Of a stretch of 44,062 nt of DNA, positions 648 to 1,147 are shown piece after piece. The notes below the pieces were generated by a model. It was not told the origin of the DNA and made no database searches. It saw nothing but the letters and a program-made list of their open reading frames with translations. The DNA lies in assembly GCA_028864975.1 (NCBI GenBank), contig JAGWLG010000030.1:1-44062 (forward strand), written 5' to 3'. Origin of the DNA: Thermoplasmata archaeon. GTDB lineage: Archaea; Thermoplasmatota; Thermoplasmata; Lutacidiplasmatales; UBA184. A program made the position numbers and the translations under genes. The number at the start of each line of letters is the position of its first letter. Position 1 is the stretch's first letter.

Positions 648-665
648 CCCTGGGAAGTCCTCCGC
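648..665 (+). repeat. Left inverted repeat of the IS110 element (ccctgggaagtcctccgc)
   Basis: Its reverse complement gcggaggacttcccaggg matches 2401-2418 gcggaggacttccaaggg at 17 of 18 positions. Confidence 0.85.
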
Positions 666-799
666 GAATTGAGTTGACCCCCTCGCGGGGCCTCGCGGAG
701 GTCCGCCTGAGCTCGCTACCGCTCGCCTGGTCGCTCCGCTCCCGGACCCTCTCCTTGTTGGAAGGATGGGCGGACCCTTCCATACCGCTCGGCCTGCCA

Positions 800-1105
800 C
801 CCGCGGTCCCCCTCAGGGGGACGCCCCAAGAAGAGGTGTGGTGTTCTCGCCACACCTCGCCCACCTCACAGGGCTCGGCGAGGAACACCCCACGGGGTTC
901 CCCGCCTTATCCGCGCACCCCATCCAGGGGTGTGGCCTCGAGCCCGCGGCGCCCGGTAGGAAAATTGGGCCCCTCTTCGAGGGAGCTTGTCGCAAAGACT
1001 GGGCGCCGTCGCCTGGCATGGGGTTCTGGGAGCGCGCTCTCCCGAGCGCGACCACCCGTAAGGGAGTACGGACGACACACATCGTCCCGCCCAGTCCAGG
1101 AGACC
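800..1105 (+). ncRNA. Candidate IS110 bridge/seek RNA in the long 5' non-coding end
   Basis: Dense array of stems read directly: 806-812/816-822, 833-841/850-858, 871-877/939-945, 916-921/927-932, 947-956/999-1008 (encloses a 9x9 internal loop and the inner hairpin 966-989), 1033-1039/1044-1050, 1070-1075/1082-1087, 1012-1016/1096-1100. Boundaries and expression are inferred. Confidence 0.55.
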
Positions 1106-1147
1106 CGAGGCCACAGGACGCCCGCACCGAGGTGAACTGAAGACGAT

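Follow-up and report, generated by a model that had tools for sequence, protein, structure and literature searches.

A putative guide-RNA gene upstream of the recombinase in an IS110-superfamily insertion sequence from a Thermoplasmata archaeon

Results and discussion

We analysed a 44,062-nucleotide stretch of DNA from a Thermoplasmata archaeon (assembly GCA_028864975.1, contig JAGWLG010000030.1; referred to below as the window), which is contig C116 of a 124-contig metagenome-assembled genome (MAG). An insertion sequence of the IS110 superfamily, 1775 bp in length, occupies positions 646-2420 of the plus strand, and it is very probably an active or recently active element whose left end encodes a guide RNA steering a DEDD/Ser recombinase. 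A preliminary description, made from the sequence alone, had proposed that a stem-loop in the non-coding left end belongs to the guide RNA of an archaeal RNA-guided recombinase. Two results support that proposal: the covariation of the predicted guides with the insertion flanks and with the right end of the element, and the intact IS110-family protein. Comparison among related sequences makes it well supported that the stem-loop is the target-reading loop of a bridge or seek RNA, i.e., a relative of a known system and no new category. Transcription of the RNA, its binding by the protein and the chemistry of the reaction are presumed by homology.

Extent of the element and its insertion site

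The genome contained at least two copies of the element, and the copies other than that of the window terminated contigs. One contig (C75) ended with a sequence 100% identical to window 643-783, preceded by a left flank different from that of the window; another (C70) began with a sequence 98% identical to window 2309-2431 and then continued into a different right flank. Because these other copies break at contig ends there, on the left in C75 and on the right in C70, the limits of the element were placed at 646 and 2420. Such near-identical copies at contig ends (98-100%) point to recent mobility. The features that define the element ends and its insertion site are the following:

646-665: element terminus including the inverted repeat
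653-665, plus strand: left subterminal inverted repeat, GGAAGTCCTCCGC, with its partner at 2401-2413
2401-2413, plus strand: right subterminal inverted repeat, GCGGAGGACTTCC, a perfect 13-bp complement of 653-665
577-645, plus strand: first 69 bp of a multi-copy DDE insertion sequence, here called X, with the target at the inner edge of X

The left junction reads ...GAAAG^ACCCCTGGG... and the right junction ...CCAAGGGAG^TTCTTCCTAC... (the caret marks the junction here and below). The dinucleotide AG is found at 644-645, in the left flank, and again at 2419-2420 as the last two bases of the element. Homologues had junctions of the same pattern (...AG^AC... on the left, ...GGAG^flank on the right), and all of them carried subterminal inverted repeats of 13-17 bp in the same arrangement. 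The joined ends of the element read ...CTTCCAAGGG-AG-ACCCCTGGGAAG..., and the element ends (2420) only 52 bp after the stop codon (2368). By pairwise comparison of related elements combined with conserved end motifs we mapped where 20 insertions join their flanks; AG was present at both junctions in all 20, with a single AG in the empty site and no target duplication longer than these two bases.

X is about 1885 bp long (G000 C49:1-1885) and carries a 570-aa (amino acid) DDE_Tnp_1 open reading frame (ORF) in the minus strand. Copies of X terminated contigs C93, C73, C10, C83 and C6, whereas in four contigs (C93, C73, C49 and C10) X was uninterrupted and read ...CCCCCCGAAAGTTTTCCTACACTCG..., which gives the empty target CCCCCCGAAAG^TTTTCCTACAC; in full, the target is CCCCCCGAAAGTTTTCCTACAC and its right half TTTTCCTAC. 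AG is the sole dinucleotide common to the empty site and both junctions, and it was therefore taken as the crossover core (CT in the other strand). GA and TT were ruled out as cores, since neither agrees with the empty X site and the junctions on both sides. X carries the motif TTTTCCTACACTC near each of its ends, at a distance of about 69 nt on the left and about 55 nt on the right, and the second IS110-type copy, in C70, adjoins a right end resembling that of X. The element therefore seems to home to the termini of X-family insertion sequences.

A conserved RNA module upstream of the recombinase gene

Approximately 17 related elements were found in Thermoplasmata; one unpublished genome, G302, supports none of the conclusions drawn here. 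They share with the window a module, 70-76% identical in nucleotide sequence across homologues, located on the transposase strand 62 nt upstream of the start codon. The preliminary description had assigned the guide RNA to a 500-bp non-coding end; the RNA does lie within it, but conservation across the family is limited to 905-1086 (about 180 nt). A covariance model built from eight sequences recognised the module upstream of the transposase in every close relative with 133-185 bits (178 for the window copy), and gave weak matches of 17-30 bits in a subfamily of 33-36% identity. The consensus fold, obtained from a MAFFT alignment of 17 distinct RNAs, comprised these parts:

905-1086, plus strand: conserved non-coding RNA module (bridge or seek RNA gene), from conservation and the covariance model
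916-921 with 927-932, plus strand: hairpin P1, double changes in 3 of 6 pairs, 99% of cells paired
936-945 with 1020-1030, plus strand: outer stem P2, 97% of cells paired, changes mostly one-sided, moderate support
946-955 with 1000-1009, plus strand: stem P3, the stem of the preliminary description, from fold and covariation
966-973 with 981-989, plus strand: inner hairpin P4, from covariation
1010-1019: 3' bulge
1033-1039 with 1044-1050, plus strand: hairpin P5, double changes in 4 of 6 pairs

The stem of the preliminary description (947-956 with 999-1008, 10 bp including the wobble G955-U1000), which closes the strands taggaaaat (957-965) and tcgcaaaga (990-998) around hairpin 966-989, is present, and the minimum-free-energy structure that RNAfold gave for 648-1147 contained exactly this motif (z = -4.1; none of 100 dinucleotide shuffles folded as well). 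In the consensus of the homologues the stem spans 946-955/1000-1009: the pair G956-C999 is found in this copy only, and G956 is also part of the guide (see below).

Stems are kept in the family by compensatory changes. One P3 pair (alignment columns 44-117) occurred as four types, GC in 7 sequences, CG in 5, AU in 3 and GU in 1, and two P4 pairs (columns 70-90 and 71-89) had double changes in 3 and 8 sequences. Over all consensus stems 97.5% of cells were paired, compared with 45-53% when the partners were slid by one to three columns, and the number of pairs with double changes was 15, compared with 1-4 when slid; none of 500 shuffles reached the observed values. Many invariant G-U pairs form only when the plus strand is read, which identifies it as the RNA strand. 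An RNA from the minus strand was ruled out on these pairs and on the covariance model, which scored 12-18 bits on the minus strand and 148-185 on the plus strand.

Some 27 nt ahead of the base of P2 lies a conserved TTAAT-like box (907-911), possibly an archaeal TATA element, although the intervening hairpin P1 covaries as an RNA would. Columns 9-10 and 177-178 of the alignment (window 913-914 and 1066-1067) also covary, as GC in 8 sequences, GU in 4, CG in 3 and AU in 1; columns 177-178 correspond to the core G and the handshake-like base described below. They could form a 2-bp helix closing a multiloop or reflect phylogenetic coincidence, and the pairing is too short to call.

Two loop strands that follow the insertion flanks

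Between the invariant stems, the two strands of the internal loop are hypervariable and differ in almost every element. In the window they are:

956-966, plus strand: target guide, 5' loop strand, GUAGGAAAAUU
990-999, plus strand: target guide, 3' loop strand, UCGCAAAG (990-997) followed by AC

The 5' strand GUAGGAAAAUU is the reverse complement of AG plus TTTTCCTAC, that is, of the core and the right target half, except that the core G forms a U-G wobble. The 3' strand UCGCAAAG has the sense of the left flank (CGAAAG for X and GCCAAG for the C75 copy) and ends in the invariant core AG; the AC that trails it equals the first two bases of the element and is thus handshake-like. Among homologues, a run of 3-9 nt that is the reverse complement of the 5' strand was found about 50 nt downstream of the stop codon, where the right junction lies, and this run either contained the core or directly adjoined it; the 3' strand matched the left flank over 2-7 nt back from the core. 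When the flanks were shuffled among the 15 distinct guides, the summed run length of the 5' strand, 97, compared with 49.8 +- 4.8 in the permuted sets, and the summed anchored match of the 3' strand, 61, with 37.7 +- 3.5; in neither case did any of 20,000 permutations reach the observed value.

The closest relative, E2, provides a direct comparison. Its stems are identical to those of the window while its loops differ, reading ACTTGTGCTT and TCTGCAAGAC, and its insertion site differs correspondingly: CGCCTCCAAG^CACAAGG (CTCCAAG^CACAAGG), with an 8-nt run between guide and flank. Conversely, elements with the same RNA were found as independent insertions in a common target: L017 and L061 at GAAGTAG^GGCGGG, and L060 and L058 at GTCGAAG^TC(A/G)GG. 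Loop strands that track the flanks, both across homologues and in E2, are the signature of a target-binding loop. The loops thus vary with the target sites, as the preliminary description would have it, over 15-16 independently retargeted relatives. Of the two DNAs, this loop would read the target only; the donor end would be read by a separate segment, 1060-1068 (see below).

Among the targets in the family were one end of a DDE insertion sequence, a conserved motif within an IS1182-like transposase gene and the guide-RNA gene of a sister element. E2 (L080-L082) splits an IS1182/IS5-like transposase gene, with DUF772 upstream and DDE_Tnp_1 downstream, at the conserved coding motif ...KANASK^HKAMS.... 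A nested insertion was observed in L018 (2032-2208 and 2205-3729), where a family member lies within the guide-RNA gene of a sister element from another subgroup; the insertion point is the donor-guide segment of the latter (GUAG^AGGAG). The inserted element of L018 was also present elsewhere (L015), at a similar target, ..TAG^GAGCCT.

Predicted recognition of the element ends

Two further segments of the RNA match the ends of the element itself:

1060-1068, plus strand: donor guide, AAGGGAG followed by UA, in which 1060-1066 equals the last 7 bases of the element (2414-2420)
1020-1030, plus strand: GGGGUUCUGGG, the 3' strand of P2, in which 1020-1026 is a tentative candidate for the 5' donor guide

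With its context the donor segment reads GUA-AAGGGAG (1058-1066). Its variants AAGGGAG, AGGGGAG and AGAGGAG matched the variants of the right end in 16 of 16 elements; in two cases, L067 and the window, RNA and right end had both changed against the background of their clade. The base that follows, U1067, is handshake-like, being the first base of the window's right flank; the base after GGGAG was the first right-flank base in 10 of 16 elements (permutation p = 3e-4), and in 8 of the 9 elements of the clade with left end ACCCC. In IS621, 'handshake guides' pair with the exchanged strand (PMC11208158); U1067 and the AC after the core would correspond to them by analogy.

How the left end is recognised is less certain. 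The first bases of the element, ACCCC, are complementary to GGGGU (1020-1024), and in 14-16 of 17 elements left-end position 4 (C/T) varies in step with columns 129 and 131 of the alignment, so we only tentatively suggest that 1020-1026 may read the left end. Another candidate, 924-931, whose sequence CCAGGGGT is the exact complement of the left end ACCCCTGG, was dropped because in homologues this segment is the 3' arm of P1, with compensatory changes of its own, and does not track the left end.

The recombinase

Downstream of the RNA module lies the gene for the recombinase:

1148-2368, plus strand: transposase (recombinase) gene, 406 aa, ORF intact

The protein matched the Pfam families DEDD_Tnp_IS110 (PF01548; E = 1.8e-22, 80.2 bits) and Transposase_20 (PF02371; E = 1.1e-21, 77.4 bits), both above the gathering scores, and the NCBIfam model NF033542, 'IS110 family RNA-guided transposase', with 211.5 bits (cut-off, 140). 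Residues D26, E77, D115, D118 and S284 align with the catalytic residues D11, E60, D102, D105 and S241 of IS621, as named in PMC11208158; together with G285 they are invariant, and the serine lies in a G--P----SG motif. Distant matches were obtained with the solved recombinases ISCro4 (E = 1.9e-10) and IS621 (E = 1.3e-8). Relatives of the transposase with 50-56% identity were present in Thermoplasmata MAGs and in soil and peat metagenomes; E2 is closer, with 74% identity. The family matches and the catalytic residues of this intact protein bear out the earlier assignment of the DNA to an IS110 element of an archaeon.

Proposed mechanism and alternative explanations

In the mechanism that we propose, a structured RNA of about 150-180 nt (from about 905/935 to 1086) would be encoded on the transposase strand, with stem P2+P3 closing an internal loop. 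The 5' loop strand (956-966) would pair with the transposase-sense strand across the core and the right target half, and the 3' loop strand (990-999) with the opposite strand across the core and the left target half; both would specify ...GAAAG^TTTTCCTAC..., with the crossover at AG (CT in the other strand). The single-stranded segment 1060-1068 would read the right end of the element and one or two bases of the target flank, and the left end may be read by the G-rich segment 1020-1026. With this RNA, the DEDD/Ser recombinase would then bring the circularised element and the target together in a synapse, and strand exchange would take place at the core. Such recombination has been demonstrated experimentally for IS621 (PMC11208160, PMC11208158) and for IS1111/IS110 seekRNA elements (PMC11187229).

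Several observations weigh against this reading. With about 5 nt the candidate 5' donor guide is short, and it has systematic mismatches in one clade and overlaps P2, so that the full two-loop 'bridge' architecture is only partly supported; several of the covariation signals with the element ends follow clades and hence are not independent. The register from core to P4 differs by 0-2 nt among elements, and no Rfam family matched window 1-4000 at E <= 1. As for the insertion itself, the guide agrees better with the empty X site than with the right flank present in the window, TTCTTCCTAC, and X is cut down to a 69-bp stub in the left flank. The poor fit and the truncation together hint at a rearrangement or an assembly chimera. 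In detail (window 2421-2490), the right flank is not X past TTCCTACA, and the spacer before TTCCTAC has 3 nt (TTC) and not 2 nt (TT); this could have arisen by rearrangement or recombination between two copies or by a deletion, or else the assembly may be chimeric, joined through the repeat.

The weakness of the 5' donor guide leads to an alternative that we consider rather unlikely: the RNA would be a short seekRNA that reads the target only (P2-P3-loop-P4, about 936-1030), the ends would be recognised mainly by the protein through the 13-bp repeats, and the match of 1060-1066 to the right end would reflect shared ancestry or a small hairpin (CCY-GUAR-RGG). On this account P2 would sequester the mismatched donor guide, and columns 168-173 can indeed form a small covarying hairpin (UA in 7 sequences, CG in 5 and UG in 3). 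Moreover, seekRNAs of 70-100 nt suffice, and end recognition may differ in IS1111-type elements (Siddiquee et al., PMC11187229). Against it, the right end equals the RNA segment without exception among the 16 elements, whereas the hairpin is broken in 2 of them and relies on wobbles in 3; L067 and the window changed both sequences together despite their clade background; and the base after GGGAG tracks the target flank, as expected of a donor-loop handshake guide and not of a passive hairpin. It is very unlikely, in turn, that the window element is a dead relic or an assembly artefact, with an RNA gene non-functional here though the family uses such RNAs. The X stub at the left, the non-X right flank with its 3-nt spacer, and a MAG of 124 contigs in which repeats collapse at contig ends would agree with this, but the ORF is unbroken and retains every catalytic residue, the score of the RNA module is on a par with those of relatives, the other copies are 98-100% identical, and four unoccupied perfect targets are left in the genome. 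A cis-regulatory leader of the transposase mRNA, acting on translation or stability and having no guide function, is extremely improbable: the structure does sit in the 5' untranslated region, near the start codon, and structured leaders are common in insertion sequences, yet a leader gives no reason for hypervariable strands that match DNA outside the element on both sides, nor for a segment whose sequence recurs exactly at the opposite end of the element.

Comparison with IS621, IS1111 and ISHvo10

We located IS621 in Escherichia coli and read its guides directly. Its 5' loop strand, ATCGGGCCT (compared with ATCAGGCCT), repeats the left flank ATCAGGC-CT in the recombinase-sense strand, and its 3' strand is antisense to the right flank, with the core CT in the recombinase-sense strand. 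In the archaeal element the polarity is inverted: its 5' strand is complementary to the right flank, the left flank recurs in its 3' strand, and its core reads AG on the recombinase strand; when read on the opposite strand, the element obeys every IS621 rule. The likeness to the IS621 guide loop put forward in the preliminary description thus holds for an internal loop with guides, but not for the order of these guides, which is reversed as in IS1111-type seekRNAs. In the published seekRNAs, the top-strand complement comes first in IS1111 and the bottom-strand match comes first in IS110 (PMC11187229).

With IS621 and ISCro4 (PMC11208160, PMC11208158) the element shares a DEDD (RuvC-like) domain and a Tnp domain with the catalytic serine, an RNA encoded in the left end upstream of the recombinase, a long 5' guide (8-9 nt) and a short 3' guide (3-7 nt) that both cover the 2-nt core, a core reading CT on the strand repeated by the 5' guide, and a donor-reading 3' guide followed by a handshake-like base. 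It differs from IS621 in several respects: amino-acid identity is only about 24%, the subterminal inverted repeats have 13 bp as opposed to 2-3 bp, the protein has 406 aa as opposed to 326, with a long insert in the coiled-coil region, the second internal loop is not clearly formed, and the host is an archaeon.

IS1111 elements are defined by subterminal repeats of 11-13 bp, a downstream non-coding region and transposases of 330-350 aa; a few exceptions have an upstream non-coding region, reported without RNA analysis (PMC11187229). Like ISEc11, ISPa11 and ISKpn4 (PMC11187229), the archaeal element has subterminal inverted repeats in the 11-13-bp range, an RNA with the top-strand complement 5' of the bottom-strand complement, insertion that is specific for site and orientation with no duplication beyond the shared core, and a habit of targeting repeated or mobile DNA. 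Unlike them, it has its non-coding region upstream and not downstream, a transposase of 406 aa, and terminal extensions that do not obviously fit the 7/3-bp rule. Its polarity and repeats of IS1111 type, together with an upstream RNA and a 406-aa protein, amount to a mixed organisation.

The closest named element is ISHvo10 of Haloferax volcanii, listed as IS110 in ISfinder, with about 30% identity over 84% of the protein (tblastn). The named elements among the tblastn matches to plasmids were ISHvo10, ISAtu7 and ISSso6 only, too few to assign the element to a group. ISHvo10 has been described as a diverged archaeal relative of IS1111 with long non-coding regions on both sides (PMC11187229); the covariance model of the Thermoplasmata RNA found no homologous RNA in the ISHvo10 locus. 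Both are archaeal IS110-family elements, with proteins of 406 aa here and 332 aa in ISHvo10. The Thermoplasmata elements may represent a distinct, undescribed archaeal branch of RNA-guided DEDD recombinases. That such a branch joins the polarity and long repeats of IS1111, the gene order of IS110, a recombinase of about 400 aa, handshake bases like those of IS621 and a preference for inserting into transposable elements is a tentative proposal, and somewhat doubtful as a whole.

Left-end extension and neighbouring elements

Part of the non-coding left end lies outside the conserved RNA module:

666-893, plus strand: sublineage-specific left-end extension

This extension is absent from the homologues with 50-56% identity, whose elements measure 1493-1526 bp, and is common only to E2, in which the internal hairpins are different. 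Its GC-rich core module of about 170 nt (678-847) combines conserved blocks with variable hairpins. Solo copies of 678-847 were found in intergenic positions of this genome (G000 C83:10447-10612, 86%) and of another genome of the same genus (G402 C74:16573-16738, 87%). No guide RNA adjoins these solo copies, which rules out that they are decayed full elements with a recognisable RNA, and the module had no Rfam match. It could be a small mobile or structured element.

Positions 1-445 of the window are the 3' end of another insertion sequence, 98% identical to C121:1365-1809 and C48:1-112. The ORF at 1-363 encodes a transposase-like C-terminus with no Pfam match. Three different mobile elements are thus present in the first 2.4 kb of the window.

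Significance

RNA-guided recombinases of the IS110/IS1111 type are under development as programmable genome-writing tools, and to our knowledge those characterised so far are all bacterial. The present work adds an archaeal family that is computationally well delimited, with exact ends, a target (CCCCCCGAAAG^TTTTCCTAC), a consensus RNA fold and about 16 naturally retargeted guide pairs. It introduces no new principle, as NCBI already names the protein family 'RNA-guided transposase'. The mixed organisation of these elements bears on the relation between the IS110 and IS1111 groups, and on the proposed link of archaeal IS110 recombinases to Nop5/box C/D ribonucleoproteins. If the Thermoplasmata elements do form a distinct branch, the evolution of guide polarity would have been independent of that of RNA-gene position, and the branch would supply a missing link joining the IS110 and IS1111 groups.

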